Shown: piece after piece, positions 29,401-62,600 of the stretch | Numbering within the stretch: position 1 is the stretch's first letter | Layout of the letters: each line of letters opens with the position of its first letter | Virus record (IMG/VR): IMGVR_UViG_3300042484_001031 | Location: 62,001 to 126,000 of that record | DNA length: 64,000 nucleotides | Strand: one strand, 5' to 3' | Source of the DNA: an uncultured virus (IMG/VR IMGVR_UViG_3300042484_001031) | Taxonomy: Duplodnaviria; Heunggongvirae; Uroviricota; Caudoviricetes | Made by a program: the position numbers and the translations under genes | Notes under the pieces: model-generated | What the model saw: only the letters and a program-made list of their open reading frames with translations | Database searches by the model: none | Told to the model about the DNA's origin: nothing

Positions 29401-32238
29401 TTAAACCATTGTATTACGTAATAATTTATCTGATATAGCATTACCGGTACTTAGTTGAGAAATCATTTCATCAAATTTATCTTCCATCATTTGCATCATT
29501 GATTGAGTAATGCCAGCAAGTTGATCTACTCCCGGCATAGACATGCTTGTTAATGGATCTTTTGACACATTATTATTTAATGGAACAATAGCTTCTCTAC
29601 CGTGAAGTTCAACATCATATCCAGAACTAGGTCCATCAAATATTCCTCCATCCATTGCTTTAAGTAAACTTCCTCCCTCTGATTTGGCAGCACTAAAATG
29701 CATAGCGTCTTTACTACTTCGCCAATTTCCTCCCCAACCTAGACCAAGGCCTCGTGCAACATCAGCTATCTCTGCAGGCATATCTGTAACCAAAGTACTA
29801 CCCATTGGATTAGTATCAGGATTGATATCTATTGCTGCTCCATGAGCATGTATACTTTTTACTCCTGCTTTACCTCTTACATCTCTATCAATATATCCAC
29901 CTAAACTACGAATATCATATCCGGCATTATCTAAATAGTCAACTAATTTTTGAAATTGCGGAGCATACTCGGCATTAACCTGAGCTGATCTACCTGATTT
30001 ACTAGTAATACTAGACAATTTAATATTACTACCGCCTCCTCCTCCACTAGAACTATGTTCATTGCTTGGGCCTCCAGCCTTTGAACTTACACTTCTAGTG
30101 GTTGGTGCGTCTTCAGCTTCTGCTTTAAATTTATGTCCGCCGGCTTTTGCTTGGTCTGTATTTAGATATGCTTCTTGTCCACTGGCTCTGCGTTCTTTGT
30201 TTATTACTCTTAACTCATTTTGCATTGCCATTTGACGTTCCATCTTCTTCGCCATAGCAATCTGTGATTGTTTATTAAATTCTTCTTCTTCTAATTGAGT
30301 TTTTTTAGCCTTTTCCTTAGCTACATCTACTGCCTTTTGTAATTCTGCTTTATCTTTATCAGTTTTGTTAGGATCAGTTTGTGCTTTTTTTAACAGTAAA
30401 ATTGCATCTTTAAGCTCTTTTTGTGCATCAATATTTTCGTCCATTACTTTTTGTTGGTTAAGTAATGCTTTATTATCTTCTTCATTATTAGATAAACCCT
30501 CATTAGGATCTTTACCTAAAATTTTGTTAATGTATTTCATTAAATCTACCATAGATTTAGTAAAAGCATTTACTGCACTAGAAGCCATTGGCAATGCTAA
30601 TGTTCCCATTTTGAAAACTTCTTGCCCCATTCTTTCCATGTTTTGTTGAGCTTGAACTGTATTTTCAGTTAAATCACCGGCTGCCTTTTTTTGTTTATTT
30701 TGTATTTCTATAGCCTCTTCCAAAGATACATTATTTTGATTTTGTATATCTCTTAATGAACTATAACTACCTAATGTTTTAGTATCAGGCATCAATGCAA
30801 AGGTTTCTTTACCAAAAGTATCAATAGCTTGTTTAGCACCCTTCTTCATCATTGTCTGCGCTAAATCAAAATTCTTTGCTACTTCTTCAGGTTTAGAATT
30901 TTTTAACTTATCTATTACGTCAGGTACAGTATCACCCATAACTCTCAACGCTTTTTTGGCTGCTTCAGTATTTGCACCAGATGTTAAATCCATAAATCCA
31001 CGTTTTAATTCTGGATCTTTAATAGTTAATGCAAATTGTTTTATAGCTTCTGCACCGGCAGCATTTTCTTCAGCAATAACATCCATACTAGCCGAGAAAC
31101 GACTGTCAGCTAGTTGTTCATTACGTTGTTTTATTATATCTTCTTTGCTTAAGCCGGTTACCTTTTGTAATGCATCTAGTTCTTGTGCATACTTAGCAGT
31201 ACCCTTTGCTAGCTGTTCTTCAGTCATGTTTCTAGCACGACCTAATTTAAGTTCCTGTTGTAAGAATCCAGCTGAAGCAGTTCCTATATCATCAGCAGTC
31301 ATTCCTAATTTACGTAATTCTAATCCAGCTTCTGCCAACGGACCGTCACCTTTAGTCAACATACCTACAGCTTTAGTAAACTTATCAGCACCTCCACCTA
31401 CTGTTTTACCCCATTGTGCTAAGTCACCAGCATTCTCTCTTATTGCTTTTTTGAATCCTTCAAGACTCATACCTGATTCTAGAAATTGTCTGGAAACACC
31501 TTCCATACCTTCCGCAGTTAATGCACCTGCATTTGCTAATTCTTGAAATGCCTTAAGGTTTTTGTCCATTAATTCTAAAACAAATTTAGCACCTTCGGCT
31601 GCGGCTTTAGTAGCTCCTGCTATTGCTTCACCTACAAATGGTATAGCCTTAGCCAAGCTAGCTAATGAGTTTGCTACAATATCAATTAATGGATTTAATG
31701 ATGTGAAATTAGTATTGCCGTTTGCTAAACCCATAGCAAAACTACCTAATCCTTTAGTAAGATCACCTAGACCTTTGACAAAGTTACTCCCAAATTCATC
31801 CTGGGCTTTTTGTAATTCTGCCTGTTTGGCTTTTGATCGTTCTTCACTAGCTCCTTCTTTTCTTAATCTGTCTAGTACCTTTTTTTGTTCTTTGTCTAGA
31901 TCAAGATTTTGCCTACTAAGCATTTTTGTTAAATTATTTTGATCATCAATAAAATAATTATAATTTTCTAACTCTTTTTCATATAGAACTTGTTTTCTAT
32001 TTTGTAGGGCCTGCTCCTTACCTAAAAGTCTTTCTAAATCACTATTGATTTTTTGTTCAATTTTGCCACGTCTTGCACCAGTGGCTTCAAGAGCCTTCAA
32101 AGTGCCTGCTTCTACGTTACCGTGAGCATCTAATTTAGCGGTTACACCATGACGGATTCTTAACTCTTCCTCAGCTAAATCAGCTTGCATTCCCAAAGCT
32201 TCTTTTAATCTTCTAAATTCTTCCGATTCTTCAGCCAT
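29401..32238 (-). CDS. Tape-measure-like protein with a C-terminal M15-type peptidoglycan peptidase domain
   Basis: Long helical A/K/E/L-rich body; SIHAHGAAIDIN...WGGNW...DAMHF Zn-peptidase motifs; ends with a GPSSGYDVELHGREAIVPL segment. Confidence 0.7.
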   Translation of the reverse strand: MAEESEEFRRLKEALGMQADLAEEELRIRHGVTAKLDAHGNVEAGTLKALEATGARRGKIEQKINSDLERLLGKEQALQNRKQVLYEKELENYNYFIDDQNNLTKMLSRQNLDLDKEQKKVLDRLRKEGASEERSKAKQAELQKAQDEFGSNFVKGLGDLTKGLGSFAMGLANGNTNFTSLNPLIDIVANSLASLAKAIPFVGEAIAGATKAAAEGAKFVLELMDKNLKAFQELANAGALTAEGMEGVSRQFLESGMSLEGFKKAIRENAGDLAQWGKTVGGGADKFTKAVGMLTKGDGPLAEAGLELRKLGMTADDIGTASAGFLQQELKLGRARNMTEEQLAKGTAKYAQELDALQKVTGLSKEDIIKQRNEQLADSRFSASMDVIAEENAAGAEAIKQFALTIKDPELKRGFMDLTSGANTEAAKKALRVMGDTVPDVIDKLKNSKPEEVAKNFDLAQTMMKKGAKQAIDTFGKETFALMPDTKTLGSYSSLRDIQNQNNVSLEEAIEIQNKQKKAAGDLTENTVQAQQNMERMGQEVFKMGTLALPMASSAVNAFTKSMVDLMKYINKILGKDPNEGLSNNEEDNKALLNQQKVMDENIDAQKELKDAILLLKKAQTDPNKTDKDKAELQKAVDVAKEKAKKTQLEEEEFNKQSQIAMAKKMERQMAMQNELRVINKERRASGQEAYLNTDQAKAGGHKFKAEAEDAPTTRSVSSKAGGPSNEHSSSGGGGGSNIKLSSITSKSGRSAQVNAEYAPQFQKLVDYLDNAGYDIRSLGGYIDRDVRGKAGVKSIHAHGAAIDINPDTNPMGSTLVTDMPAEIADVARGLGLGWGGNWRSSKDAMHFSAAKSEGGSLLKAMDGGIFDGPSSGYDVELHGREAIVPLNNNVSKDPLTSMSMPGVDQLAGITQSMMQMMEDKFDEMISQLSTGNAISDKLLRNTMV

Positions 32239-32335
32239 ATATTTTACTCATAATGTTATTATTTAAAGGCGTAAATTGTACCCACTAAATAGTTCATAGT
32301 ATTTATGATTGTAAAAAACCCGTTTTGGAGAACAT

Positions 32336-33160
32336 ATGAACAATAACCCATTAAAACAATATTTTCGTAGACCTGCGATATATTTAAAATTACCCAGCGA
32401 GGGTAAATATTATCCAATAGACGCTATTGATTTACCTGATAACAAAGAACTTCCTGTATATCCAATGACAGCTATAGATGAAATAACTAGCAAAACTCCA
32501 GACGCTCTATATAGCGGTGTGGCAATTTCTGAAATCATTAAAAGCTGTGTACCAAATATTAAAGATCCATGGTCTATCCCAACAATTGATTTGGATGCTA
32601 TATTAATAGCTATCAGAGCGGCAACTAATGGAAATTTATTAGATGTTGAGTCAACATGTCCTAGTTGTACTGAGTCTGCTTCATATAATGTTAATCTAAT
32701 TGGATTACTATCAAAAATAGTAGTAGATGAATACAAAAATAACGTAGCTATTGATGAAATGTCCATTGCGTTCAAACCAATCACATATAAATCATATAAT
32801 AAATTAAATTTGGCTCAGTTTGAATTAGAAAAAAATGTAAGAAAAATGAATGAGATTACGTCTGATGAAGAAAGATTAAAATATTCAACAGAAATGATGA
32901 AACAATTAAATGATTTAACCATGCTTCTTGTGTCTGAATCAATTGACAATATTACTACCCCGTCATTTGTTGTAAATGAAAAAGAATATATTCTTGATTT
33001 TTTACAGAATTGTGATAGGAACTCATTTGTAAAATTAAAAGAGCATACAATAAAATTACGAGAAGATGCTCAATTAAAACCATTAGCAGTTAAATGCATT
33101 CACTGTGAACATGAGTATAACCAAACCATTGCGTTAAATGTATCTGATTTTTTCGAATAA
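32336..33160 (+). CDS. gp26: Baseplate hub assembly protein / tail chaperone (gp26-like)
   Basis: LKLPSEG..YP, PMTAIDE, DLDAILIAIRAAT, CPSC and CIHC, terminal DFF; GGAG RBS. Confidence 0.75.
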   Translation: MNNNPLKQYFRRPAIYLKLPSEGKYYPIDAIDLPDNKELPVYPMTAIDEITSKTPDALYSGVAISEIIKSCVPNIKDPWSIPTIDLDAILIAIRAATNGNLLDVESTCPSCTESASYNVNLIGLLSKIVVDEYKNNVAIDEMSIAFKPITYKSYNKLNLAQFELEKNVRKMNEITSDEERLKYSTEMMKQLNDLTMLLVSESIDNITTPSFVVNEKEYILDFLQNCDRNSFVKLKEHTIKLREDAQLKPLAVKCIHCEHEYNQTIALNVSDFFE

Positions 33161-33207
33161 GGCTTCTGTATCTGTCCGCTGAGGATATACAGAAGCTGAT
33201 AGACGAT

Positions 33208-33384
33208 ATGGAAAAAGAAACGTTAATCATTAAAGAAAATGCTATAAGAATGGCTTGGCATATGCGTGGGGGTGTTACCTATGAAGATATATTAAACATG
33301 TGTACTACTGAACGTAATGTTATATCAAAATTAATGGAAGATAACTATGAAACTACTAAGAAATCAGGGCTTCCATTCTTCTAA
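33208..33384 (+). CDS. Small gp51-like baseplate assembly protein (58 aa; below track cutoff; frame open from 33148)
   Basis: MEKETLIIKENAIRMAWHMRGGVTYEDILNMCTTERNVISKLMEDNYETTKKSGLPFF directly after the gp26-like gene. Confidence 0.7.
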   Translation: MEKETLIIKENAIRMAWHMRGGVTYEDILNMCTTERNVISKLMEDNYETTKKSGLPFF

Positions 33385-33519
33385 TTAATTCCGTAACTGT
33401 TCATTTATCATTACGGGTTATCTATGTAAAGATGAACTTCGTTCATCTAAGAACTCACTTCGTTCGTTCTTATTTTTTACGGTTATCTATTGTCTTTTAC
33501 TCTACATTATATATGGACT

Positions 33520-33872
33520 ATATTGCCGCTTTGAAGCCATGGTAGTGCTATTCAGCACTACCAATGGTTAAGGGTATTTGCCATGCCCGTCATCCTTTGT
33601 CATCTTTTCCCCGTCTAATTAGCTATTTGTTGCTACTAAACGCTACCGGTTGCTCTGTAAAGTTATGGGACTGTAGTGAAGCTATCAATGATCTTTCAAT
33701 TGATTCTTCAGCAACGCACTTCTCACCCCGCAAAGATAAAGTAGGGATGAGCTTGTTGAGGGTTCGCTTTGTCGATTGCCCTCTCGGTATTCCATAGTTA
33801 TCACTAACTATGCTTACTCCAGATCCATCAGCGTTTCCGCATCTTCAAGGAGGTCTGACAAACTCAGACAAC
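33520..33872 (-). ncRNA. Candidate large structured non-coding RNA, family not recognised
   Basis: About nine adjacent helices, GNRA loops and G-U pairs on the minus strand, and a 5'-3' long-range pairing, in a gap with no credible ORF. Confidence 0.55.
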
Positions 33873-33886
33873 GAATTTTTATTTTA

Positions 33887-34441
33887 TTATGTTGTTGGGA
33901 TATTGATAACAGTTTGATTTGACGTGGTGTCTGTTGGTGCTGAATAGCTTTTTAATAATGTACTGTTGTGTAGGAAAAAGTCATCAAATTCAACGATTAG
34001 CCAATCGCCAAACTTGCTTGACGAATAATAGACAAAATTGTCTGTTATCCATGTTGAGCCGCATTGCACGGCAACATAACGACCTTTTCTATTAAACTTC
34101 ATAAACAATAAATTTACATCACCTGTTTCGGCAACATCCATTAATTGTTCAATCCATGTATTTATTACTTTACAGTCACCTGAAAGTAGTAAGTGAAAAG
34201 GAAAATCTGCATAGAACTTACATTCAATATTCATTTTACTGAAACTTTGTCCGGGTACAATATCACCTTTAAAAGAACGTATTTGTCCCTCATGTAATAC
34301 TGTTGTCCTATGTTGATTTTTACCACCAATGTAAGCTCCAGAACCAGGTGCTCTTATAAAGCTTTCGCCATATAGGTCAGAAAGAAACTTTGCAACTTCT
34401 CTCTCAAATCCTGATCCTTTAGCCTTCTGCGGTGATGTCAT
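33887..34441 (-). CDS. PD-(D/E)xK nuclease, Holliday junction resolvase-like (probable start MTSPQK at 34441)
   Basis: KGSGFEREVAKFL...GSGA...GDI...IECK pattern; directly follows gp46. Confidence 0.75.
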   Translation of the reverse strand: MTSPQKAKGSGFEREVAKFLSDLYGESFIRAPGSGAYIGGKNQHRTTVLHEGQIRSFKGDIVPGQSFSKMNIECKFYADFPFHLLLSGDCKVINTWIEQLMDVAETGDVNLLFMKFNRKGRYVAVQCGSTWITDNFVYYSSSKFGDWLIVEFDDFFLHNSTLLKSYSAPTDTTSNQTVINIPTT

Positions 34442-34475
34442 GTTAATACTTATCTGTCTCTGTGTATCTTTGAAA

Positions 34476-36551
34476 TTATTCTGTGTCAACTGCGGTTGAA
34501 TAACTTGTAAAGCCGTTCTCTTTAATTACTTTAAGAACACTAGGCACACGCCCAGCTAATTCTTCACGGTGACTTACAAGCCAAATACTTTTCTGTCTGC
34601 GTCGGCTCATGTCTTTAAGAATTGCAATAGCATTCTCAACACCCATTGTGTCAAGACCACTATCAATTAGTTCATCAATAAACAATGTATTGATAGGTCG
34701 ATATAAACTTTCCCATACATCTCTAAACGCAAAACTTAAGCCTAAGATTAAACGGTTACGTTCACCACGACTTAAATTATCAAAGTCAAGTTCTCTACCG
34801 AGCTCGGTAATCTCAACTTGTAAATCATTCTGAAAGATAACTTGATGCGGTAAACCAATCTTATCTAAGTAATGTGTTAATCGTTGATTCAAGTAACTTA
34901 AGTTTTGGTCAATAATCTTCTTACGAACAAAACTATCTTTGCTAACTAACAAATCTAACAAGAACTTTTGATGATCCATTGTTCTTGTTAATCGGTTGAT
35001 AGCATCAAAGTCAATAGATTGTAATGCGTTACTCTCCATCTCTACTACTTGTTCAGCGTATGGATCAGTTTCATTACCTTTAGTACCAATCTGAGTTAGT
35101 AAACTATTAACAGTAGACCGATGTTCAACAGCCTCTGCTTCTGTATCATATATTGTTATAGGTTGAGGCCCTAATTCAACATAACTTAACTCATTAAGTT
35201 GTTCATTAAATGGATTAGATTCTTTCTTCTTATCTTCCCATACTTTCTTTAAGTTAGCTACATCGCCACTATGACGAATAGCTTCCGCTTCTGTTTTGTA
35301 TTTTGGAGTAGGCTTAGGACCAATATCTTTTAATAATGATTGATTAGCCTCTAAATGATCTTCCATCATTGCTAAATCAGCTTTTGTATTTTCAAGTAAC
35401 GTAGTTTTTTCTAACGTAACTTCTAAATGCTTATCATCATGGAAATCTTGACCACATGCATAACACTTATGATCCTCTAATTCTTTAATCTCTCGAATTA
35501 ATTTCTCAATTAATTTTTTTTCTTTTGTGATATTTTTATTTTGGGTATCAATTGCTGTGGCAATAGTCTTTTGGTCAGCTTCATCTTTGATCCACTCTTT
35601 TAAATCACTCCATGCTTTCAGTTCAGCTTCAATGTCATACTCATTCTTGCGTAGGTATGTTGTATGTGCTACTGTAATATCAGTATCATGTTTTTGTTGC
35701 CATGCGGTAGAACGTGCAACTAACGCATTGTATGTATCCTGTGCTTCTTTTTGTTTAGCCCAAACATTCAAATCTTTATGTGCTAGTAGTTCTGCTTCAA
35801 TATCAATCTTGCTCAATTCATCATGGTCGGCAACTAATTTAGCAAGATCCTCATCATGCTTTGCTTTCCATAACTTCTGTCTACGTTTGAAACTTTCAAT
35901 CTGTTCAGCTACACGTTTGTTAGCTTCTTCAATACCTTTTACACGATATTCTTCTTGTTGTATACTATCTTTGCTGTCACGGATCATATTCTTAATGACC
36001 TCAGCTTTTTCACTTAACAAAGTAATACCAAGCAATTGTTCAATGATATCACGTTGATCATTAGTTTTCAGTGCTAAAAACGGTTCACTATATGTATTCA
36101 ACACAACAATATGTTTGAACATATCGGCACTCATGTGAATAACATTTTCAATAGCTACCTGTGTTTCTTTATTCTCACCCTGTGCATCGTCTGTATTCTT
36201 TTGTAAATCGTTGTTTACATAGAACCTTAAGATATTGGGTTTGCGCCCTCGTTCAATCTTATATTCAATCCCGTCTACACTAAACTCTAGTGTGACCATC
36301 ATGTTTTTGCCATTGGTACGATTGACTAAGTTATCTTTACGAATGCTATTGATTGGTACACCGAACAAGGCATAAGATAGACCCTGAATAAGAGTAGTCT
36401 TACCTGTACCATTACGAGCACCATCACCACCTAAGTCTAAGTTTTCACCTAGAATAAGTGTTAAGTCTTGTCTGTCAAAACAAACTGCTTGTGTTACTTG
36501 TCCGATTGAAAGGAAATTGCGAAGGGTAATATTCTTAAGGGTAATGCTCAT
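34476..36551 (-). CDS. gp46: Recombination endonuclease ATPase subunit (Rad50/SbcC-like)
   Basis: Walker A NGTGKTT, zinc hook CYAC, signature LSRGE, Walker B LFIDE, H-loop VSH. Confidence 0.93.
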   Translation of the reverse strand: MSITLKNITLRNFLSIGQVTQAVCFDRQDLTLILGENLDLGGDGARNGTGKTTLIQGLSYALFGVPINSIRKDNLVNRTNGKNMMVTLEFSVDGIEYKIERGRKPNILRFYVNNDLQKNTDDAQGENKETQVAIENVIHMSADMFKHIVVLNTYSEPFLALKTNDQRDIIEQLLGITLLSEKAEVIKNMIRDSKDSIQQEEYRVKGIEEANKRVAEQIESFKRRQKLWKAKHDEDLAKLVADHDELSKIDIEAELLAHKDLNVWAKQKEAQDTYNALVARSTAWQQKHDTDITVAHTTYLRKNEYDIEAELKAWSDLKEWIKDEADQKTIATAIDTQNKNITKEKKLIEKLIREIKELEDHKCYACGQDFHDDKHLEVTLEKTTLLENTKADLAMMEDHLEANQSLLKDIGPKPTPKYKTEAEAIRHSGDVANLKKVWEDKKKESNPFNEQLNELSYVELGPQPITIYDTEAEAVEHRSTVNSLLTQIGTKGNETDPYAEQVVEMESNALQSIDFDAINRLTRTMDHQKFLLDLLVSKDSFVRKKIIDQNLSYLNQRLTHYLDKIGLPHQVIFQNDLQVEITELGRELDFDNLSRGERNRLILGLSFAFRDVWESLYRPINTLFIDELIDSGLDTMGVENAIAILKDMSRRRQKSIWLVSHREELAGRVPSVLKVIKENGFTSYSTAVDTE

Positions 36552-50605: not shown

Positions 50606-53600
50606 ATGGCAACAAGAATTAGAACATTAAATTTTCTACCTGAAATATTTAAAACAACTACCAATAGTCAATTTTTAAACGCAACGTTGGATCAGATAGT
50701 AGACCAACCAAATACTAAAAGAATTCAAGGTTACATTGGTAGTAGATTTGGGTATGGTGTTAATGCTAAAAATTATTACGTAACAGAACCTACAAAAACT
50801 AGAACAGATTATCAATTAGATCCGGGTGTAGTATTTCTAAAAAAAGACACAAGCACTGCACAAGATTTTATAAGCTATCCAGGTATAATTGATGGATTAA
50901 AATTAGAAGGCGCATTGACAGGTGACAATAATAGATTGTTTACTAGTGAATTTTATTCATGGGACAGTTTTACAGACCTGGATAAGATTATTAACTTCAA
51001 CCAATATTATTGGATTCCTGAAGGACCCGAAGCCGTAACAGTTAGTACAGAAACTGTTTACAATGCTACAGATTATATTATCACAAGTACTCCAAATGGA
51101 TATTTAGTAACTGCTACTGGTCAATCACAAGGCTCTACTAACCCGTCACTTACATTATTGCGTGGCGGTACATATACATTTAATGTCAATCAAGCTAGTG
51201 AATTTTGGATTCAAGGAATGCCGGGCATTACTGGGTATGACCCTAATCAGCCTAACGTACAGACACGTGATGTATTGGGTGTTGATAATAACGGTGCTGA
51301 AGTTGGCATAGTAACATTTACTGTTCCTTTTAAAACTGCACAAGATGAATATGAATTACCCGGCAACAATCGTGTTGATTTAGTAACTACATTATTGTAT
51401 GCTAATGTTGACGGGGTATTACTCAGTAGTTTGACAAATGGAATAGATGGTATCACCTCAATAGACGGTCTTACTTTAATGTTTTATAATAATGAAAATG
51501 AAACAACATTTTATACCATTACATATACCGGTGATATCACAGACCCCACAATAACGTTAGTTGCCGGTACTACAATTCCAGTTGAAGAAAACATTACAGC
51601 TAATTTTGGTACAGAGTATATTGGTAGAACGTTCTACAGAACTACCGGCAGTGTAATTACTTTAATTCCTTATTTAAGTGCAATACTTGATACATTGTAT
51701 TATCAAGATGGAACGTCAAGTAATAAAGTAGGACAAATTAGATTAATCTCTAGTAATACAACTAACCGTATTGATGTGCTTACTGATATTATAGGTCAAG
51801 CAAACTATACATCTCCAAATGGAGTAGTATTTACTAATGGATTAAAAGTAATATTATCAGGAGAAATATATCCTGTTAGCTATGAGAATATTAGATTTTA
51901 TGTTGAGGGTGTGGGTACAGCAATAGAATTAATTCCAGTTACTGATTTTGTAGCCCCTGAACCGTTTACTCAGGGTACATATATACCGTTTGACACAACA
52001 CCATATGATATTGGAAACTTTGATGTTAACTTGTATATCCCTGTGTTACAAGATTATATTACTATTGCTAGAAACAGTATTGATAAAAACCCATGGTCAA
52101 GAAGTAACAGATGGTTTCATATTGACGTAATTAATGCAACAGCTACCTATACTAATAATCCAGAATTAGCTACACTATATGCTACACCTGACAATAAAGC
52201 TAATCGTCCTATTATTGAATTTTATCCTAATTTACGTTTGTTTGACGCAGGAGTTGTTGGCAAACCACCAATTGACTTTATTGATTTCAGAACAACTGAT
52301 GCATTCAATGATGTTACCGGTGTTGCCGGGCAAGAAAGTTATTACCCTGATGTAGAAGTATATACAGCATATACTGGATCAATTGTAGGTACTACAGGTA
52401 CATCTACTACTATTTCTATCTTATCCTCAGCCGTTACTGGCGCATTTCAAGTTGGTCAATATATAAATGATAGTACTAATGTGTTGCCAAGAAATAGTCA
52501 AATCACTGCTATAACCGGAACAACTACATTAACCTTAACAGTATCTTGGGTTGGATCACAAACTATAGTATCAACTTCAAATGAATCATCATTCATTGCT
52601 AACGATATACAAAACGATAGTTATTCAGTATTTGATGGAGCACGTATTGTGTTTGCAGCCGACACCACATTAAATGTAAGAAATAAAATATATGTCGTTA
52701 GATTTTCTACATTGGTGTTTGGAGACACTCCGGTAATTACATTAACAGAAGCAGAAGATGGACTGGTTTTAACAGATGAACAAACATTTGCATTTAGAGG
52801 TTATAACTATCAAGGCATGGATTTTCACTTTGATGGTACTAATTGGCAAGAAAGTCAACAAAAAACTACAGTAAATCAACCACCATTATTTGATATACTT
52901 GACAATAATGGAATTAGTTTTGGTGATCGTGACATATATGTTGGTACGTCATTTGCCGGTAATAAATTATTTGCATACGGTATTGGTTCGGGCATAGATG
53001 ATCCTGTACTAGGATTTCCATTAACGTATAGCTCTATTGATAATATAGGTGACATCAGTTTTGATGTGTCATTAAACTCAGAATCATTTAACTATGTAAG
53101 TGGAACTGTTCCTATTACACAAAAAGTTAATACAGGATATGTTTATAATTATAGTGATTTAACAACTTCAACAAGGCAATTGGGTTGGCAAACAGCAGTT
53201 GGGCCTAGCGTACAATATCAAATATTTGAATTTGATTATTTTGCCGCAAACCCTACCACAACATACACATGTGATATTGCTAAACTAGCTAACACCGATA
53301 GTCCATGGCCTACTATACAACTTTTTGTAAATAATAAAATACAATATTCAAGTGATTATACAGTAGAAACTACAGCTACACAAACTATAGTAACCTTTTC
53401 AGTACCTAATCCAGAAATAGATACAGTAGTTGAAATATTGTTATTAAGCGATCAGGTAAGTGAAACAGCCTATTATAGTATACCTATTAATTTAAATAAT
53501 AACCCACTGAATGAAGATATTGTTTCTGTCAATGTAGGTGATATACGTGGTCAATATCAAAGTAGTTTTTATAATAATCCAAATACTACCGGTAATGTAT

Positions 53601-56600
53601 TTGGTGCAAATAATTACCGTGACTTGGGTAATATGGTTCCATATGGTAATAGAATTATTCAGAATAGTGCAAGTTTAGTATTACCCGGAGCATTCTTACG
53701 TAAACAAAATCAGAATCTGTTCAATGCATTAATGTATAATGGTAGAGAATATATTACTTTCAAAACATTATTAGTTGACACAATTAATACGACAGATTTT
53801 ACTGAACGGTTATCTCCTGCAACTATGTTAGATAATGCATTAGATGTAATTACTAGCGCAAAAACAGATAGTAATAGTTTCTTTTGGAGCGACATGTTGC
53901 CGTCAAAAGCGGCATACATTACTAACACGTATAGTTTTGCAAACGCATTGGATGTAAGTATATATCCATTAAGTAAAATATATAATTTTGCCACAGCTAA
54001 TTATAATGGGGTATTGGTTTATTTAACTAATACATTAGGAATAATAACACAATTAATCAATGGAGTTGATTATACAATCAGTAGTGATAGCCCATCGTTA
54101 ACAGTAACATTGGATTTGGCTCCCGGTGATCAAATTACTATTAAAGAATATAATCAAACATACGGTAGTTATATTCCAAATACTCCTACTAAATTAGGTT
54201 TATATCCCTCAACGATACCTACAGTTATATTAGATACTGCATATTATCAACCTACATATTTTATTGTAGGGCATGATGGGTCATATAATAAATTATATGG
54301 TGATTACATTGACGGAGTATTAATTGATTTCAGAGATCAGGTATTACTTGAATTTGAAAAACGTATATATAACAACTTGAAATTAAGCAATGTTATTCCT
54401 ATACAAGAATATGAAGTATTGCCTGGTTTCTTTAGAGATACTGATTATAGTTATGATGAAATATTACAGATTTACTCAACTAGTTTCTTAGATTGGGTTG
54501 GTCAAAATAGAATTAATTATAAAACTCAGTTTTATAGTGCTAATAACGAATTTACATACAATTATAATCAAAGTGGTAATAAAATAAACAGAGAAGTTAT
54601 TCCTCAAGGATATTGGAGAGGTGTATATGAATATTTCTATGATACTAGTACGCCGGATACTAGTCCATGGGAAATGCTTGGCTTTACAGATCAACCAACA
54701 TGGTGGGAAACACGATATGGCCCTTCTCCATACACAAGCGATAACTTAGTATTGTGGAATGATTTAGCACAAGGTATTGATTGGAATAATGGTAATCCAG
54801 TTGTCATACCACAAGCAATTCGTCCTGAATTATTACAAGTATTACCAGTTGACAGTGAAGGTAATATAGTATCACCTTTTGTTTCTATTGTCGGTAACTA
54901 TAGTAACACATCATTCAACCGTGATTGGATAGTAGGAGATGTTGGGCCTGCAGAGTTCTCATATCGTAGAAGTAGTTCATGGCCGTTTGATTTAATGCGT
55001 ATATTAGCATTGACAAAACCTGCAGAATTCTTTAATTTAGGAGTTGACATTGACAACTATAAATTTAATGAAGAATTTAATCAATATCTAGTTAATGACC
55101 GTAGTCATTTAGTTATAAGCGATGTAGAGATTTATGGTAATGGCACTGCTAAAACAAGTTATATCAATTGGATTGTTGACTTTGAAAAACAAGTGGGCAT
55201 TGATGCAACCACTAACATTACTGATTTGCTATACAATGTTGATGTTAGATTAGTATACAGACTTGCTGGCTTTAGTGATAAAAATTTATTAAGATTCTAC
55301 GTTGAAAAATCAACAGCTAATAGTAACAATAGTAGTTTATTGATACCTGATGAAAGCTATCAAGTATTGTTATATGATAATCAACCATTTGATAAAATTG
55401 TTTATAGTGGTGTGGTTGTCCAATTAACAAATACTGGTTACAAAGTATATGGTAATAGTCAGACCAATGCGTATTTTAAAATATTAGCACCTAAAATTAA
55501 TGGTAACTATGAAAGAGTATCAGTTCAGGGATTAAGTGTACAATTAGCTAGAGACTATTACACTACACCGGAGGTAGTAGCATACGGAACTGAATTTATT
55601 ACAGTACAACAAGTATCACAATTTTTAGAAGGTTATGGAAGATATTTGGCTAGCCAAGGTGTATTGTTTGACCAAATTGAATCTGGCTTGACAGTTAGCT
55701 GGAGACAAATGGTAGCTGAATACTTATATTGGGCTCAATCTGGGTGGGAAGTAGGAAGTATTGTTAATATTAATCCGGCATCTAATTTAATTTCTATTAA
55801 CAAAGATAGTTATATTGTACAACCACTAACACTACAAAGACAAAACTTTATATTAAATCAAAACTTATATCCAATACAAAGTACTGACTTAAGCGTAATT
55901 CGTGATGGAACATTGTTTACAGCACAACCATTAAATCAAGGTGATACAGTTGCTTATGGACAATTTAACATTAGTAATTTTGAACATGGTATCGTATTTG
56001 ATAACGTTACTGTATTTGATGATGTAATTTATAACTTAATTACAGGTTTACGTCAAAATCGTATCACATTGCGTGGAGCTAAAACAGCCGAGTGGAATGG
56101 TACAATTGATGCTCAAGGCTTTGTCTTGAATCAAGATAATGTACTTGATTGGGATAAAACAGTAAAATATACAACCGGTAGTATTGTTAAGTATAAAAAC
56201 AAATATTGGATAGCTCTCACTATTATTCAACCTAAGGAATTATTTGAAGAACGTGAGTGGAAAGAAACTGATTATAACGAAATACAAAAAGGACTATTGC
56301 CAAACACAAGTACACGTTCTTATGAAAGTACAATATACTATGATGTAAATCGTGCTAACTTAGAAAATGATGCCGATCTATTAAGCTTCAGTTTGATTGG
56401 ATATCGTCCACGTGATTATTTGGCACTAGTTGATCTAACTGATATTACACAAATTAACGTTTATAAAAACTTTATTAAGAATAAAGGAACATTAAACGCA
56501 GCCAGCGCATTCAAGGGCGCTAACTTACCACAAGGTGGTATTAATTATGATATATATGAAAACTGGGCTATTAAATCAGGTGAGTTTGGTGGTGTACTAA

Positions 56601-59600
56601 ACAGCAATTTTATTGACTTCAAATTAAATCAAAACTTATTAACCGGTAATCCTAGCATCGTTGGATTAACTAATGGGATAACTACTGCCGGAGTACAACA
56701 AGAAGTACCGTTATATAGTTTATATAATTATGGACGCCCGGTAACTAGTACAGATGTATTGCCGTTATTACCAACAGATACGCCTTCGACATTATTTCCG
56801 TATGCAGGCTATGCTAACTTTAATGATATGCGTATTGCGGCATATTACTATTTTAACTTAGCAAACAGTACATCACCTAGAGGTGTACTAACACCTTTAT
56901 CAGAGTTATATGTAGGTCAGTATGTTTGGATAGCTGATTATCAAGGTACTTGGCAAGTAATGACACCTGCAAGTTTAGGAGCTGTTGTATTTGCTAAAAA
57001 TAACTTAAATGGTACTGCGACAATAACATTTAATAATCCACATGGATTGACAAAATATCAACCATTTGCAATTGTAAACTTTAATGATAGCTTGAATGGT
57101 TATTATATAGTTAATACTGTAATTGATCTCAATAGTGTTTTAGTCAATGTAACATTGGCACCGTCAATTACTATTGTAACTGGTCAAGGTATTGGATTTA
57201 GATTCCAATCACAACGTGTTGATAATCCTAGTGATATCATTGATTTGCCTTTATTGAATACAGAATTTGTTAAGAATAAAGTTTGGGTAGATACAAATAA
57301 TGATGGTGATTGGGCTGTATATCGTAAGAGTATAAATTATACGTATGATTCTGAATTAGTAAAAGATGGATCAGAATCATTTGGTAGTGCAGTTGCATAT
57401 ACCGATACATTAGGTTATTTAATTGGTGATGCAGATGCTGGAGTAACATATCGCTATTCTTTTAATGTATTGTTTGATAGATATGATTTGAAGCAAACAT
57501 TAACCGGTGTTGCATCGTTTGGTACAACAATTACATATGCCAATGACATATTTGTGGTGTCACAACCTACAGGTACACCTGAAGTTTATGTTTATCAATT
57601 AGTAGTTAATACTACTGTAGATGAATTACAATCATTGCAATCTGCTATATCAGCACCAGGCGGTGTAACTGAGTGGGGTAGAGCTATTGCTATATCTGGA
57701 GATACTAATTGGTTATACATATCAGCGGTAACATCCTCTACTAGCCTAGTATATGTTTATCGTTATTCAACTGTCACAGAAGAATATGAACAATCTGCTA
57801 CTATTGATTTGGGATTAACTAATGCTGATAACTTTGGATACTCATTGTCAACAGATTACTATGGTGATACTGTTATAATTGGAACACCAGATCAAAATTA
57901 CGATGGTTCTACTGAAAATTGGGGTTACACTTATGTATATGATAGAACAGTTCAAAATTTTGAAGCACAATATACAAGTATAACTTATGTACCACAACCG
58001 TTTACATTAGCTTGGACACCTAGTACAACTTCAATAACTGTTACTGCAAGTGATGCAACGTTAGATCGATTTACATGTGCTAGTAGTTCTAGTCTTGTTA
58101 TAGGTGACCCAATCACATTTACTGGTACTGTGTTTGGCGGCATAGCACTGAACACTGTTTATTATGTATTAGCTAAACCTTCAGGAACTACTTTTACTAT
58201 ATCTACTACACGTGGCGGATCAACATTGCAATTAAATAACGGTAGTGGGTCAATGACCGCAACTCAACAAGATACACCATTGTACGTATCAGTTAATGGA
58301 ACTTTAATTGATGATTCAACATATTTTAATATAGGTTCTACTATTACTATAGTACAAGGATTAAACGCAGGTGATATAATCACGGTAAGTAGTAATAACT
58401 TTGTGTTAGCCCAAACCCTCACAACTGAGAACACACCTAGAATTGGCGTACAGTTTGGTACTAGTGTAGATACTAACACATATGCTACTGAAATATTAGT
58501 TGGCGCCCCTTTTGAATTAAACAGTCAAAATCAAGAAGGTGTTGTATATCGTTATACTAACGGCGGTGGTAAGTACGGTATGATTATAGGTACTACTGCT
58601 ACTAACATTACAACCACTAGAACTATTTTAGTTAATGGTTATATGGTTGTATTAACCGCCGGCAATGCAACAGTAGTTGCTACTGCAATTAATCAAGCAA
58701 ACATTACAAATCTACAAGCTACCGCAGTCGATGGCAAATTAATTATTAGTTTATTAGATAATGCGTTAGCGTCACCAAACGATAAGCTTAATGTTACTGT
58801 ATTAGATACAGCTACATGGTCTGAATTAGGATTTAGTACCTATACTCAAACACAAGTAATTACTGATCCTCATGTTCAAGGCACAACTCAATTTGGTAAT
58901 GTGGTTAAATTTAATGAATTTAATTCGTTTGTTGTAAGTGCACCAACTGCTACACGATATCAAGCAACAACATTTGATTCTACCGATGATGAAGATTATG
59001 ATAACGATACATTATTTGATAATAATACTACACAATGGATAGACACGTATGCAAATGCAGGTGCAGTTTATATGTTTGATTATCTATCGGTTTATAATGA
59101 ATCATTAATAAATTGTGGTAATTTTGTATATGCACAAAGTACCAATGATATTAATGAAATATATGGTAGTCAACCAATGTACGGTCATGCAGTAGAATTT
59201 AATGCTTCACGTGTAGTTATTGGCACTCCAAACTTTAAGCCAGACACTGTTGCAGGACAGATTATAACATATTTCAATTCTATTGGAGCTCCTGATTGGA
59301 GCGTATATAGAAGTTCAAGCCCAATAGTTGATATTAATAGAATTCAAAACATACAATTGTATAGTGCAATCACCAACGACACACTAGATAATTTAGATTA
59401 CATTGATCCGTTGCAAGGTAAAATATTAGGGTCAGTTAGAGAAAATATTGATGTAGTATCTAATGTTGATCCAGCTGGATATAACAGTCCTAATAATACT
59501 CAAGGGTCAATGGTATGGGGCTCATCACAGGTTGGGCAAATATGGTTTAATACAAGCACAACACGATTTGTAAACTATCATCAAAATGATATTGTATATA

Positions 59601-62600
59601 ATAGTAAATGGTGGGGACAAATCTTTCCGGGTAGCGATGTAACGGTTTATAGTTGGATAACAAGTAATACTCTTCCGATATCATATGCAGGTCCGGGTAC
59701 GCCATATAATGTTGACACTTATTCAATTGAATATACCTTAAATGCAACTGGTGTACTAACTCCTGTATACTTCTATTGGGTAAGAAATACTAATATTATA
59801 TTCACCCTGCGTGGTAAAACATTAGCAGATAGTATTATTCAATCGTATATTGCATCACCTATTAATTCTGGTATAAGTTATTTTGTTCCTTTAGAACAAG
59901 ACATATTTGCTTTATATAATTGTGCTAATAACATCAATGCCAATGATACAGTATTACATATTGGTTATTCTACTGGAACAAATGATGATGTATCACATAG
60001 TTTATACAATTTAATTCGTACTAATTATGCGGATGATTTCTTACCTGGATTACCTACTACCAATGGAGCTGATGTTCCTGAATCATTATATGATAGGATG
60101 TTAGATAGTTTATGCGGTGTGGATGAATCTGGTGCAGTAGTTCCTGATCCATTCTTACCTAAACCAGTACAATATGGTATATATGCAAGACCAAGACAAA
60201 GTTTCTTTGTCGATAGATTACTTGCATTGAAAAATTATTTAACATATGCTAATGAAATATTATCACAATACCCTATAAGTGAAACACGTAGGTCATTATT
60301 CTTATTCACTGAAGGTGCAACTAATCCGTCGACAGTAGATAATCCTAATTGGTCAGGTAGTGTATTACCATTTTATGCCACACCTGATTATTGGTATTAT
60401 ATTAATTGGTGGGCAACTGGATATGATGATAATACTAAATCAGCATTACAAGTTCCTATATATGCTGACTTAGCAACAATAAATGCCACAGCTGGTTTAA
60501 TTGTTACTGTTGCGGCAAACGGAGATGGAAAATCAGAAACATATGTATATACTAATTTAAATACATGGGACCGTATTGGATTACAAGATGGTACGATTGA
60601 GTTTAGTAGTAATTTATGGGATTATGCTACAGCCAGATTAGGATTTGGAGATAATTTCTTTGATACTACACCATATGATACATATCCATCACAAGAAACA
60701 CGTAGCATAGTTAGAGCATTGAATGAAGAAATTTATACCAATGAATTGTTAATCTTCAGAAATAAAAGTTTAATTCTATTATTTGAATTCATTCAAAGTG
60801 AAACAATTGAATCACAAAATTATTTACCATGGTTAAATAAAACATCATTTATGGATGTTGGGCATACTATACGTGAATTATTACCGTTAGAAGTATTTCA
60901 ATCTGATAATCAAGACTTTTTAGCTGGTTATATCAATGAAGTTAAACCGTATCACGTAGTTATTAAAGAGTTCTTATTTAAGTATACTGGTTCTGATTTA
61001 TACGCAGGAACAATAACTGATTTTGATTTGCCCGCACAATATAATACAGATATTCAACAGTTTATTACTCCTGAATTAGTATATTCTAATCCAAGTGGTG
61101 CAAATCAATATTTACCAAGTGATCCTATATGGGAAACTGCTCCGTATAGTGAATGGTTTAATAATTATGGATTAGGTATTACTGGTGTTGATGATTATCA
61201 GATAACAGTATTAGCATCATATGTTTCATTAAATTCGCCGGCTATGGCAGTGGATAATGCATATGGCTTTCCAATCAATGGAACAATATTAATTGGTGAT
61301 GAATTAATTGGTTATTCTAATGTTAATCGTTCTAATAATACACTTAGTGGATTAACTCGAGGTGTGAATGGTACACCAGTAACAGTACATATTCCGGGTG
61401 AAATAATTACAATAAATTTACCTGCTATATTAGTATTAAACGGTGGTCGTGGTTATGCTGAACCTCCTAGAGTAGTTGCATATATTGATACTACTATATA
61501 CCCGGAACCAAGACGTGTGGCAGTATTGCAAGTGGTAATGAATTTAGATTCAATATTGCGTGTAGATGTAATTGATCCGGGAGACGGATATGCAGTATTG
61601 CCTGAAATTATAATTGACCCATCTGTTTCAGTAACATTTACTTCAGATGATGTTAATTTGTTATCAAATACAATATCATTACCTTCACCATTATTACAGA
61701 CAGGTGATTTGATAACATACACTATAGGTACAAGTACAACTCCTGTAGGTGGATTAGATGTTGACCAGTACTACTATGTAAATGTCTTAGAATCTACGCC
61801 AACATTTGTTGTTGCTTTATATACTACTTACAGAGATGCTATTAACGATAGTGATCGTGTAATATTATTTGATACTGGTTTGGGTGTTAATAATGTATTA
61901 AATGTTAGTGCAAGAGCAAGTTGTGTATCAACTTCTTTACCAATAAGAGAGAATCAAATAACATTACGTTTTGACAGAACAACATACAATTCAGAATTAA
62001 CTGATTGGGTTGGCGGAGCATTTTATGGAAGTTTCTATGCTGGATTGTATAATAATTCAGAAAGAATAGCTAGTTCAAGTATTGGATTACAGTCAACACA
62101 ACCTGACATTGACACTATATTAGCCAGTGCGGCAGGCGCAGTTTTTGAAATTGAAGATGTTACTAACGTTGAAGTTATAATTTGGAGTTCACGTACAAGA
62201 ATTGTATCAGCCATTAATACTAGTACTGATGTAATAACAATAACTGCCTCTGATGGCGGAGCATCACTTATTAATAGTGATTCAATAACTAACCCTACAA
62301 TAGGTTTTTATATTGGCATGCCAATTAAATTTATAGGGGCAGTGACCGGTAACATAACAGTAGAAACTACCTATTATATTAAATCGTTAGTTGACGGAAA
62401 TAAGTTTACACTATCTGCTTCAATATCAAGTGGAGTGCCCGGGGCAGTATTGTCAATGGCGGGTACAATATTGGGATCAGCTGGCTTAACTGGATACGTA
62501 GGTGAAGTTACTAATACAGCGGTTGTTACTATATTCTATCCAGGCATATTAACAGCAACTGCTACTAGTAGTATAACTAATGGAATATCAGTACCGTTAA

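Follow-up and report, generated by a model that had tools for sequence, protein, structure and literature searches.

What occupies the long interval between a resolvase-like gene and a convergent gene for a baseplate-hub chaperone in this uncultured phage, and could it be functional? In the window (the whole stretch of 64,000 nucleotides that was analysed) the first gene ends at 33887 and the second at 33160, or at 33384 if a 58-aa frame beyond it is included. A first-pass annotation had considered this interval the only long gap between genes. It is indeed a long gene-free stretch, but the first 402 bases of the window are gene-free as well, and these two are the sole long stretches lacking a plausible gene; the seeming gaps past 50.6 kb belong to one giant open reading frame (50606..64000), which encodes at least 4465 aa and is still open where the window ends. 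The same annotation was right in describing the interval as GC-rich, since its G+C content is 0.41-0.43 (33500-33900) compared with 0.30-0.36 in the flanks.

We found that positions 33522-33869 of the window, minus strand, are a gene for a structured non-coding RNA, whose elements and neighbours are reported in Table 1. Using nhmmer, the RNA was detected in 189 of 191 related IMG/VR loci, and the two loci without a match (L070 and L072) end directly past the resolvase match. In total 112 distinct sequences were collected, 59-100% identical to the window, and in 109 relatives the RNA is 334-381 nt long (median 354). Across 86 divergent comparisons its nucleotide conservation exceeded that of the resolvase coding sequence in 59 and that of the gp51-like coding sequence in all 86. 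Each of five family genomes has a single copy, and the RNA, kept by all members examined, belongs to the core of a clade of uncultured lake phages, T4-related and of jumbo size, with genomes of 260-525 kb; three complete genomes possessing the RNA also carry 24, 46 and 53 tRNA genes in tight arrays, spaced by 5-10 nt. Going farther from this clade, blastn of the RNA region against 50,697 phage records gave no match, nor did nhmmer on the loci of Salicola phage SCTP-2, Sinorhizobium phage Phosso and Pseudomonas phage PA5oct. A covariance model of the core (R1) found no credible match in the whole genomes of these three phages, a single partial match in SCTP-2 (14.4 bits, E 0.185) being taken as noise. 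A scan of one genome per species in 185,579 prokaryotic species, limited to one strict 22-base motif pattern, gave no matches.

Table 1. Positions of the RNA, its structural elements and the neighbouring features in the window
Feature	Position	Strand	Support or remark
gp26/51-like baseplate-hub chaperone gene, convergent	32336..33160 (274 aa)	+	Pfam PF12322
58-aa frame beyond the gp26/51-like gene	33208-33384	+	ORF list
Trailer, outside the conserved fold	33385..33521		two direct ATAGATAACC(C)GUAA boxes flanking two hairpins
Structured non-coding RNA, conserved core	33522..33869 (348 nt)	-	nhmmer, covariation
Conserved single-stranded 3' tail (CUUCAAAGCGGCAAU)	33522..33536	-	variable sequence beyond
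H11 hairpin, near-invariant stem (GGUAGUGC/GCACUACC then CCAUGG)	33537..33567	-	3/13 pairs compensated
H12 short hairpin (GGG/CCC), conserved CAUGGCAAAU loop	33572..33588	-	2/3 pairs compensated
PK1 3' strand (AAGAUGA)	33600..33606	-	
PK2 3' strand (GGGA), contiguous with PK1 3' strand	33608..33611	-	
H10 hairpin	33613..33641	-	10/10 pairs compensated, 93.9% paired
H5 3' strand (CGGUA), abuts H9 3' strand	33644..33648	-	
H9 (GUUGCU/AGCAAC) enclosing H9a and a 23-nt internal loop	33649..33715	-	96.8% paired
PK2 5' strand (UCCC, H9 internal loop)	33667..33670	-	pairs with 33608-33611
H8 hairpin with two-pair extension (C33755-G33719)	33719..33755	-	10/10 pairs compensated, 95.6% paired
PK1 5' strand (UUAUCUU, H8 loop)	33733..33739	-	pairs with 33600-33606; 6/7 compensated
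H6 (GAGGG/CCCUC) with inner H7 (UCG/CGA)	33758..33783	-	100% paired
H5 5' strand (UACCG), long-range helix closing the four-way junction	33785..33789	-	pairs with 33644-33648
H4 hairpin, GNRA tetraloop (GUGA)	33793..33812	-	both-side changes in 8/8 pairs
H2 (CUCC/GGAG), internal loop, H2b/H3 hairpin (GCG-GAAA-CGC here)	33817..33852	-	
H1 hairpin (GUCUGA/UCAGAC plus G-C)	33853..33869	-	both-side changes in 6/6 pairs
Conserved A-rich box (AATAAAAATT)	33874..33883	-	5-6 nt before helix H1; alignment
Resolvase-type nuclease gene (200 aa, PDDEXK_15 / RusA-like)	33887..34489	-	Pfam PF24608 E 8.8e-26; PHROG 244
gp46-like gene, then resolvase gene (same minus-strand run)	34476-36551, 33887-34489	-	

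The structure built on 109 sequences comprises 99 base pairs in 19 helices and is 91.5% paired, compared with 78.0% in shuffled alignments (none of 500 as high) and 33-43% in controls where the structure was slid. Compensatory changes on both sides were observed in 75 of the 99 pairs, with a covariation score of 0.405 against 0.167 for shuffles and 0.065-0.082 for slid controls; because the sequences are related, the shuffle control overstates the significance, and the slid control is the fairer of the two. RNAalifold on 54 sequences gave 59 pairs, 30 of them compensated. The folding energy is also better than that of shuffled sequences (minus strand, z-score -2.65; plus strand, -2.67; none of 100 shuffles as good on either), but, being nearly equal on both strands, it tells that the region folds better than chance and does not distinguish the strand. 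Ten of the eleven pairings named in the first-pass annotation were found again where it had placed them (33853-69, 33831-40, 33793-812, 33758-83, 33722-51, 33649-715 and its inner hairpin, 33612-42, 33540-63 and the CUCC/GGAG stem), each containing pairs changed on both sides among the 109 relatives. The eleventh, an end-to-end pseudoknot between UUGAAG (33843-48) and CUUCAA (33531-36), had to be abandoned: none of its six pairs is compensated, 81.0% of its cells are paired, a level that shuffles also reach (80.9%, with 241 of 500 as high), and two of its pairs fail to form in 49 and 66 of the 109 sequences. More generally, no covariation was found between the 3' tail and the 5' region in these relatives.

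The overall layout is a four-way junction of H5, H6/H7, H8 and H9, preceded by three 5' hairpin arms (H1, H2-H3 and H4) and followed by a 3' domain (H10, H12 and H11). One contiguous strand, 33600-33611, pairs simultaneously with the hairpin loop of H8 (PK1) and with the internal loop of H9 (PK2). Both pseudoknots were first picked up as top mutual-information pairs, and considered alone they are 92.6% paired, against 83.3% in shuffles (none of 500 as high) and 45-66% in slid controls, with 9 of 11 pairs compensated; in PK2 by itself 98.8% of cells are paired and compensation is seen in 3 of 4 pairs. The long-range helix H5, which was absent from the first-pass annotation and emerged in this follow-up, is 99.1% paired and its outer pair is U-A in 69 sequences, C-G in 23 and A-U in 5. 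U33661 may form a base triple with the pair U33789-A33644, and G33586 and G33529 are candidates for a co-change. Among the other helices, H2 reaches 100% pairing, has compensation in 3 of its 4 pairs (each in 1-3 sequences) and encloses an internal loop that never varies (UUGA opposite GGAUCU); compensated pairs number 5 of 6 in H2b/H3, 4 of 5 in H6 and 2 of 3 in H7. The loop of H4 is GUGA, GCGA or GUAA in the relatives. Three of the six H9 pairs are compensated and the remaining three invariant, as are ACUACA and AC.UUA.AG in its 23-nt internal loop, while the inner hairpin H9a (33678-33709) is variable and the weakest of the stems proposed earlier, with 66-76% of cells paired. Support is weaker for H12 (56-92% paired), where the alignment is gappy. 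In H11 the upper stem is almost invariant, and the lower 5' strand is often unpaired, with an invariant CCAUGG on the 3' side.

We then considered on which strand this structure is read and whether the region could encode a protein. Read as the minus strand, the structure contains 570 G-U cells against 143 A-C cells, and these G-U pairs, together with the GNRA loops, favour the minus strand. The earlier claim that the wobble pairs work only on that strand is too strong, however, because the other strand is still 87.5% paired compared with 91.5%. Table-11 open reading frames of 36-77 aa do overlap the RNA region on both strands and might suggest a missed small protein gene, or a structure arising by chance. 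However, indel runs among the relatives, counted by length modulo 3, number 730, 283 and 114, and with 1013 of 1127 runs off multiples of three the region is not coding. This indel phase rules out the small-protein reading; moreover no conserved reading frame was found across relatives, and the covariation lies far above both controls, so that an explanation by chance or by a small protein is almost certainly wrong. Conservation, covariation, the indel pattern and the lack of an Rfam match therefore give strong support to the earlier proposal of a functional, structured RNA on the minus strand.

Eleven sequencing runs on record as RNA contain part of the RNA/resolvase stretch. In four metatranscriptome runs from four studies, contigs span from inside the resolvase gene into the RNA (33558-34258, 33562-34006, 33574-34059 and 33694-33944), and the depth over the RNA and the resolvase gene is 12.8/13.8 and 24.8/24.8, with 0-2 over the convergent gene; such contigs give no proof of strand, ends, level or a single transcript, and DNA carry-over is possible. 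In three of the runs the contigs end at 33558-33574, with no loose end listed, but strain variation in the H11 loop may interrupt assembly there, so that these stops may not mark the 3' end of the RNA. Stretches left uncovered in these runs carry no evidential weight. The co-transcription with the resolvase gene suggested by the first-pass annotation is thus weakly indicated: contigs of four runs join the two, but they establish neither the strand nor a single transcript, and one locus, L133, has the RNA on a contig that lacks the resolvase gene. In L133 the RNA stands behind a homing-endonuclease gene and no resolvase gene occurs anywhere in the 12-kb contig, which argues that the RNA is not merely the 3' UTR of the resolvase gene.

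Concerning its synthesis, transcription through the gp46-like and then the resolvase gene would continue into the RNA and supply at least part of it, and a second possible source would be its own A-rich box just upstream of H1. This box occurs once in the window, is of the ACAATT type in distant relatives and is kept in L133 behind the homing-endonuclease gene; it could serve as a promoter element or form a 5' leader. Other promoters were rejected. A sigma-70-like candidate over the 3' tail (TTCAAA-18-TATAAT) was dropped as no fixed-spacing peak of -10-like hexamers appears in 90 relatives, and TATAAATA, the T4 late-promoter motif, is absent at the RNA and occurs once in the window against 15.5 expected. 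Also ATAAAAAT shows no enrichment in the window (6 against 12.6 expected). On the other side of the RNA, the direct-repeat boxes of the trailer lie at 33478-33491 and 33410-33424, and in some relatives homing-endonuclease genes are inserted in the trailer. By a simple scan, 39 of 107 relatives have a canonical hairpin-plus-U terminator in the ~200 nt that follow the RNA, and the window has none; a second terminator scan found none after the RNA.

These data bear on the possibility that the RNA is a cis-acting 3' element of a recombination-nuclease operon, protecting or processing the 3' end of the mRNA or gating read-through that would enter the convergent late gp26/51 gene in antisense. The RNA does lie directly past the stop codon of the last gene of the minus-strand run, facing a convergent gene, contigs from RNA libraries run across both it and the resolvase gene with the same depth, and hairpins follow in the trailer. 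Against this, ~350 nt with two pseudoknots and ~50 invariant unpaired bases exceed what known stabilisers or terminators need, the trailer that would serve as expression platform is variable, a terminator-like site is present in a minority of the relatives, and the RNA of L133 follows a homing-endonuclease gene in a 12-kb contig devoid of any resolvase gene. We regard such a role as unlikely. A riboswitch or other cis-regulatory leader was rejected, as in 76 of 76 loci the gene that follows the RNA is convergent, and none follows on the same strand. Since no same-strand gene follows, the RNA is single-copy and the L133 contig lacks the resolvase gene, the RNA appears to be an independent gene and not a leader.

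Could the fixed neighbours reveal the function? The resolvase gene is upstream in 74 of 75 loci and the gp51-like gene downstream in 76 of 76, and with synteny equally fixed at both flanks the position of the RNA tells little about its function. By analogy with the layout of nuclease genes that have a structured RNA of their own behind them, the RNA might be a partner of the PDDEXK nuclease encoded beside it, acting as its guide, activator or inhibitor, in which case the variable sequence past the conserved 3' tail would be a specificity segment. This would agree with the nuclease gene being immediately upstream on the same strand in nearly all loci, with the co-assembly of RNA and gene in RNA libraries and with the abrupt stop of conservation past GGCAAU; nevertheless the gene on the downstream side is equally constant, and the adjacency may reflect no more than synteny; the L133 contig has no nuclease, and the cultured phages whose nucleases are the nearest homologues (36-44% identity) show neither the gap nor a match to the RNA model. 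The family is moreover annotated as Holliday-junction resolvase, which needs no guide, and we consider this partnership quite improbable. HEARO, or the omega RNA of IscB/TnpB, was rejected given that the neighbour is a 200-aa PDDEXK_15 protein and no Rfam model matches.

It is still less probable that the locus is an element of replication or acts at the DNA level, as a structured pre-primer RNA at an origin or as a packaging or recombination site read as DNA. Its position at the junction of convergent gene blocks, beside recombination genes, the AT-rich trailer with direct repeats that follows and the near-invariant H11 and tail without covariation would all be compatible with this role, as would a recombination breakpoint just downstream of the RNA, where in two loci (L007 and L015) the resolvase is 96% identical and the gp51-like protein 65%. 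However, the RNA shows strand-specific G-U wobbles and GNRA loops, its long-range helix and two covarying pseudoknots point to a folded single-stranded RNA, and there is no iteron array inside.

The RNA was also compared with known families. None of the 4227 models of Rfam 15 matched the window at the gathering score. With E <= 10, four matches in 33200-34100 were unrelated noise at less than half their cut-offs, and five noise matches in 20 diverse homologous loci were not common to homologues. The first-pass annotation had recognised no tRNA, tmRNA, RNase P or intron, and ARAGORN, Rfam and RF00010 agree. Specifically, ARAGORN found no tmRNA gene in the window and Rfam gave no match for it; for group I and group II self-splicing introns there is likewise no Rfam match and no reading frame is interrupted, the RNA beginning past a stop codon and facing a convergent gene. 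The comparison with bacterial RNase P RNA is closer: the two are of similar size, and in both a long-range helix lies between conserved strands rich in purines, two pseudoknots occur and junction nucleotides are invariant; the tight tRNA arrays of the host phages (24-53 genes) need the 5' processing that RNase P provides. A few short sequence resemblances had first suggested this comparison. Nevertheless RNase P RNA itself was rejected, because RF00010, which matches 11 of 14 control genomes, has no match at E <= 10 in any of five family genomes; the helices do not follow the order of the P1-P4 scheme, and an RnpA gene was found in none of the five.

According to Kretsch et al. 2025 (PMC12286853), GOLLD, ROOL and OLE are large ornate non-coding RNAs of bacteria and phages. 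Our RNA resembles them, as described there, in being large, intricate and pseudoknotted, carried by phages, present in lake metagenomes and found by comparative sequence analysis. By analogy it could be an RNA-only homo-oligomer, whose conserved unpaired or palindromic segments would make intermolecular contacts. The invariant CCAUGG at 33537-33542 is self-complementary and its intramolecular partner is unpaired in 27-33 of 109 sequences, and phage carriage, large size, ornate fold and lake origin recall GOLLD in particular, whose very name refers to lakes. On the other hand, none of the Rfam models of the three families matches in sequence or structure, and no covariation bears on intermolecular pairs. 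GOLLD, ROOL and OLE are also larger than ~350 nt. We judge an oligomer unlikely. GOLLD and ROOL often adjoin tRNA genes, whereas this RNA does not: ARAGORN found no tRNA in the 64-kb window, and in one genome (G001) ~100 kb separate the RNA, at 91.2 kb, from the tRNA array (193-203 kb).

Fremin, Bhatt and Kyrpides 2023 (PMC10690425) mined candidate structured RNAs from IMG/VR, sharing with us the data source and the covariation method, and some of the candidates listed there are near resolvase and RusA genes. Their candidates, however, average 67 nt there and are described as upstream of genes. Four motif strings of our RNA are absent from the searchable supplement text, and a fragment of the RNA may be in that catalogue. 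In the literature searched, no description of this RNA was found. On the basis of these comparisons, the RNA appears to be new as a family and as a fold.

Our best guess, to which we give an even chance, is that the folded RNA works in trans as the core of a ribonucleoprotein or as a ribozyme, and not as a cis-regulatory leader; this reading is drawn from the architecture and the invariant unpaired bases. The PK1/PK2 clamp holds two arms of the junction side by side and would thereby form a compact core that gathers ~50 invariant, mostly unpaired nucleotides (UGCGUU, ACUACA, AC.UUA.AG, AACCGGU.GC and the UUGA/GAUCU loop). This invariant core would be a binding or active site, and its gathering in a clamped core suggests a molecule working in trans. 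The narrower proposal of a new class of large ribozyme, with a double-pseudoknot clamp on a four-way junction and the invariant junction nucleotides as active site, is rather unlikely. If it held, one concrete option could be the processing of the phages' own tRNA arrays, making the RNA a functional analogue of RNase P and not a homologue.

New classes of large, highly structured RNAs are rare, and RNase P, self-splicing introns, OLE, GOLLD and ROOL each opened new biochemistry or structural biology. The RNA described here offers a well-defined fold, with 99 supported pairs and two pseudoknots, and is present in metatranscriptomes; its compact size suits in vitro transcription, chemical probing, activity screens and cryo-EM. 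It is conserved as strongly as the proteins of the clade, and this conservation, together with its retention across the clade, suggests that its function is indispensable to these phages.

The 200-aa resolvase-type nuclease encoded just upstream of the structured RNA (hereafter the family RNA) was used as query and retrieved 71 IMG/VR loci with protein identities of 69-100%, and a 22-base degenerate pattern made of invariant RNA columns added at least 120 further stretches. An nhmmer profile found the family RNA in 189 of 191 loci (the 71 nuclease-derived ones plus the pattern matches listed), and both misses are loci that stop just past the nuclease match. The RNA is complete in 154 loci; together with the window these amount to 112 different sequences, whose identity to the window is 59-100%. 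The loci are not independent phages, because several share contigs. Core length ranges from 334 to 381 nt (median 354). Of 86 divergent comparisons, 59 show higher nucleotide conservation in the RNA than in the nuclease coding sequence, and all 86 show it higher than in the gp51-like one. Indel runs relative to the window leave a remainder of 1 (730), 2 (283) or 0 (114) when divided by three; being mostly not multiples of three, they exclude a conserved reading frame.

The folding energy of a 367-nt stretch was better than that of dinucleotide shuffles, as the first-pass annotation had expected (z -2.65 and -2.67 on the two strands, 0 of 100 shuffles as good on either), which favours structure and says nothing on strand. 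RNAalifold on 54 sequences gave 59 pairs, 30 with compensatory change, two long-range helices included; mutual information over all column pairs of 112 sequences recovered the same helices and pointed to two new interactions between distant segments. The full structure was set out in window coordinates and counted on alignment A2, which holds 109 sequences and omits L002 (RNA identical to the window) and L051 and L157 (long insertions). It comprises 99 pairs in 19 helices (H1-H12 among them), and both sides change in 75 of the 99, so that the covariation looked for in relatives is present. Standard pairs fill 91.5% of cells, against 78.0% after shuffling (0 of 500 as high) and 33-43% with slid partners; the covariation scores are 0.405, 0.167 and 0.065-0.082, respectively. 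All ten hairpins or stems named in the first-pass annotation held in this count. Its CUCC/GGAG stem, seemingly invariant in 54 sequences, varies to CUCU/AGAG, CUUC/GAAG and CCCC/GGGG once the full set is counted. The functional structured RNA that it inferred is thus upheld by covariation, by the lack of an Rfam family and by indels that exclude coding; chance structure or a coding region is hardly credible as an explanation.

Helix H5 and the pseudoknots PK1 and PK2 are additions to the pairings proposed earlier. The two pseudoknots alone are 92.6% paired, against 83.3% shuffled (0 of 500 as high) and 45-66% slid, with 9 of 11 pairs compensated; since the 3' strand of one adjoins that of the other, two junction arms are tied together by a single 12-nt strand. 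The end-to-end pseudoknot proposed earlier (33843-33848 with 33531-33536) fails: none of its 6 pairs is compensated, and pairing reaches 81.0% against 80.9% shuffled. G33586 and G33529 are replaced jointly, both by U (mutual information 0.71; the co-change is non-canonical), and U33661 varies in concert with the H5 pair U33789-A33644, with which it may form a base triple; both signals could reflect tertiary contacts or shared ancestry. Four distant loci (L180, L192, L168, L102) carry an extra hairpin of about 18 nt between H2 and H4 (A2 columns 99-118), so the H2-H4 junction tolerates an extra arm.

Read as minus strand, 91.5% of cells in the whole structure are paired, and as plus 87.5%. G-U cells number 570 against 143 A-C cells, and the H4 loop in relatives is GUGA, GCGA or GUAA, a GNRA loop on the minus strand only. 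The minus strand is therefore well supported, if less absolutely than the earlier claim that G-U pairs and GNRA loops work only there. An origin or other element acting at the DNA level is very improbable.

Coordinates of the family RNA, its added pairings, neighbouring genes and transcript contigs in the window
Feature	Position	Strand	Remark
gp46-like SbcC/Rad50 protein gene	34476-36551	minus	
PDDEXK_15 / RusA-like resolvase-type nuclease gene	33887-34489	minus	200 aa
A-rich box before H1	33874-83	minus	AATAAAAATT; candidate promoter
H5	UACCG 33785-89 with CGGUA 33644-48	minus	closes four-way junction with H6/H7, H8, H9
PK1	H8 loop 33733-39 with 33600-06	minus	
PK2	UCCC 33667-70 with GGGA 33608-11	minus	UCCC in H9 internal loop
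58-aa frame after gp26/51-like gene	ends 33384	plus	
T4 gp26/51-like baseplate-hub chaperone gene	32336-33160	plus	convergent on minus-strand genes
Contigs of four metatranscriptome runs (four studies)	33558-34258; 33562-34006; 33574-34059; 33694-33944		

The source record has 136,969 bases and is estimated 40% complete. The 58-aa frame reaches 33384 and the nuclease gene stops at 33887, so 33385-33886 is gene-free; it had been called the only long gap, which holds apart from the window's first 402 bases. The seeming gaps past 50.6 kb are one open reading frame (50606-64000, plus, at least 4465 aa, open at the window end under table 11), a giant protein gene. The region is indeed richer in G+C than its flanks (0.41-0.43 over 33500-33900, 0.30-0.36 alongside). 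Elsewhere, a 945-aa frame (29401-32238, minus), which bears a Peptidase_M15_4 domain at its C terminus (E 1e-12), may encode a tape-measure-like or virion protein that includes a cell-wall hydrolase, and an ATAAATA-like motif lies within the divergent region 32239-32335. The octamer TATAAATA, which we take to be that of T4 late promoters, is strongly avoided: the whole window has one copy (39626-39633) against 15.5 expected from shuffles, each of 100 shuffles having at least one.

Parts of the stretch are contained in 11 runs recorded as RNA and taken from lake, freshwater and estuarine samples. All four contig ranges start inside the nuclease gene and extend into the RNA, with like depth on RNA and nuclease (12.8/13.8, 24.8/24.8) and 0-2 on the convergent gp26/51 gene. 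This fits the earlier proposal of co-transcription with the nuclease gene as regards span and depth, although the contigs carry no strand or single-molecule information and DNA carry-over is possible. Among the pattern matches listed, 74 of the 75 loci with enough flank have the nuclease gene upstream in the same orientation, and in 76 of 76 the gp51-like gene follows downstream in the opposite orientation; both neighbours being fixed, nuclease adjacency is plain synteny. In L133, the sole exception, the gene upstream of the RNA encodes a GIY-YIG homing endonuclease, and no nuclease homologue was found through its 12-kb contig; it retains the RNA together with the short A-rich box that precedes H1. 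The RNA is therefore more than a nuclease 3' UTR or obligate partner; an element acting in cis at the 3' end of the nuclease operon, or a gate on antisense read-through, is unlikely, and a partner of the PDDEXK nuclease quite improbable.

Downstream, several close relatives (L015:4112-4609; also L009, L013, L014, L016, L026, L033) carry an insertion of about 600 nt at the equivalent of 33387-33425, with an opposite-strand 165-aa frame that is probably a free-standing homing endonuclease, its GIY-YIG-like N-terminus judged by eye. In the trailer that follows the fold, two hairpins (about 33430-33472) lie between two directly repeated copies of ATAGATAACC(C)GTAA (33478-33491 and 33410-33424, minus), and a similar ..GAT.ACCGTAAA box lies 30-45 nt past the RNA in many relatives. 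L007, L015, L021 and L024 resemble the window in nuclease (94-97% protein identity) and RNA (91-93% nucleotide identity) but merely at 61-65% in the gp51-like protein, which therefore places a recombination breakpoint in the trailer, between RNA and convergent gene.

ARAGORN found neither tRNA nor tmRNA, in line with the first-pass annotation, and Rfam gave no gathering-score match in the window, only unrelated noise at E <= 10, and no family in 20 diverse homologues. What we take to be short motif resemblances to RNase P had, with the tRNA arrays, prompted an RNase P lead; membership was rejected, RF00010 being negative in five of five family genomes (E <= 10) and positive in 11 of 14 controls. 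In the complete genomes G001, G002 and G003 (records of L027, L047 and L144; 349, 364 and 525 kb), tRNA genes number 24, 46 and 53 and form tight arrays, with gaps of just 5-10 nt in the G001 cluster; no RnpA gene was found in these three. GOLLD, ROOL and OLE (Kretsch et al. 2025, PMC12286853) are closest in kind. The family RNA differs from them in being unrelated in sequence and not adjoining tRNA genes. It is presumably also smaller, and an RNA-only oligomer of the GOLLD/ROOL kind is rather unlikely. Short candidate structured RNAs have been mined from IMG/VR (Fremin et al. 2023, PMC10690425); the family RNA was not found in the searchable supplement text, and a fragment of it may be catalogued in that work; no description appeared in the literature searched.

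R1, a covariance model built on the junction core (155 positions, 33 pairs), found exactly one copy in each of five family genomes of 259-525 kb, and no credible match in SCTP-2, Phosso and PA5oct, the jumbo phages in culture whose nuclease homologues are closest (36-44% identity). No match was obtained by blastn against 50,697 phage records, nor by the strict 22-base pattern against prokaryotes (one genome for each of 185,579 species).

The family RNA is a real, novel, large structured RNA: conserved, single-copy and non-coding, it is read from the minus strand and has a four-way junction that two pseudoknots clamp. About 50 invariant, mostly unpaired nucleotides lie at the junction and in the H9 and H2 internal loops, and the clamp would gather them in one place. 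We infer that this pattern matches RNAs whose folded core is the working part, such as ribozymes and ribonucleoprotein cores, and not leaders or terminators; there is about an even chance that the family RNA is a trans-acting ribonucleoprotein or ribozyme core. With its fold now well defined and open to testing, the RNA is of high interest.
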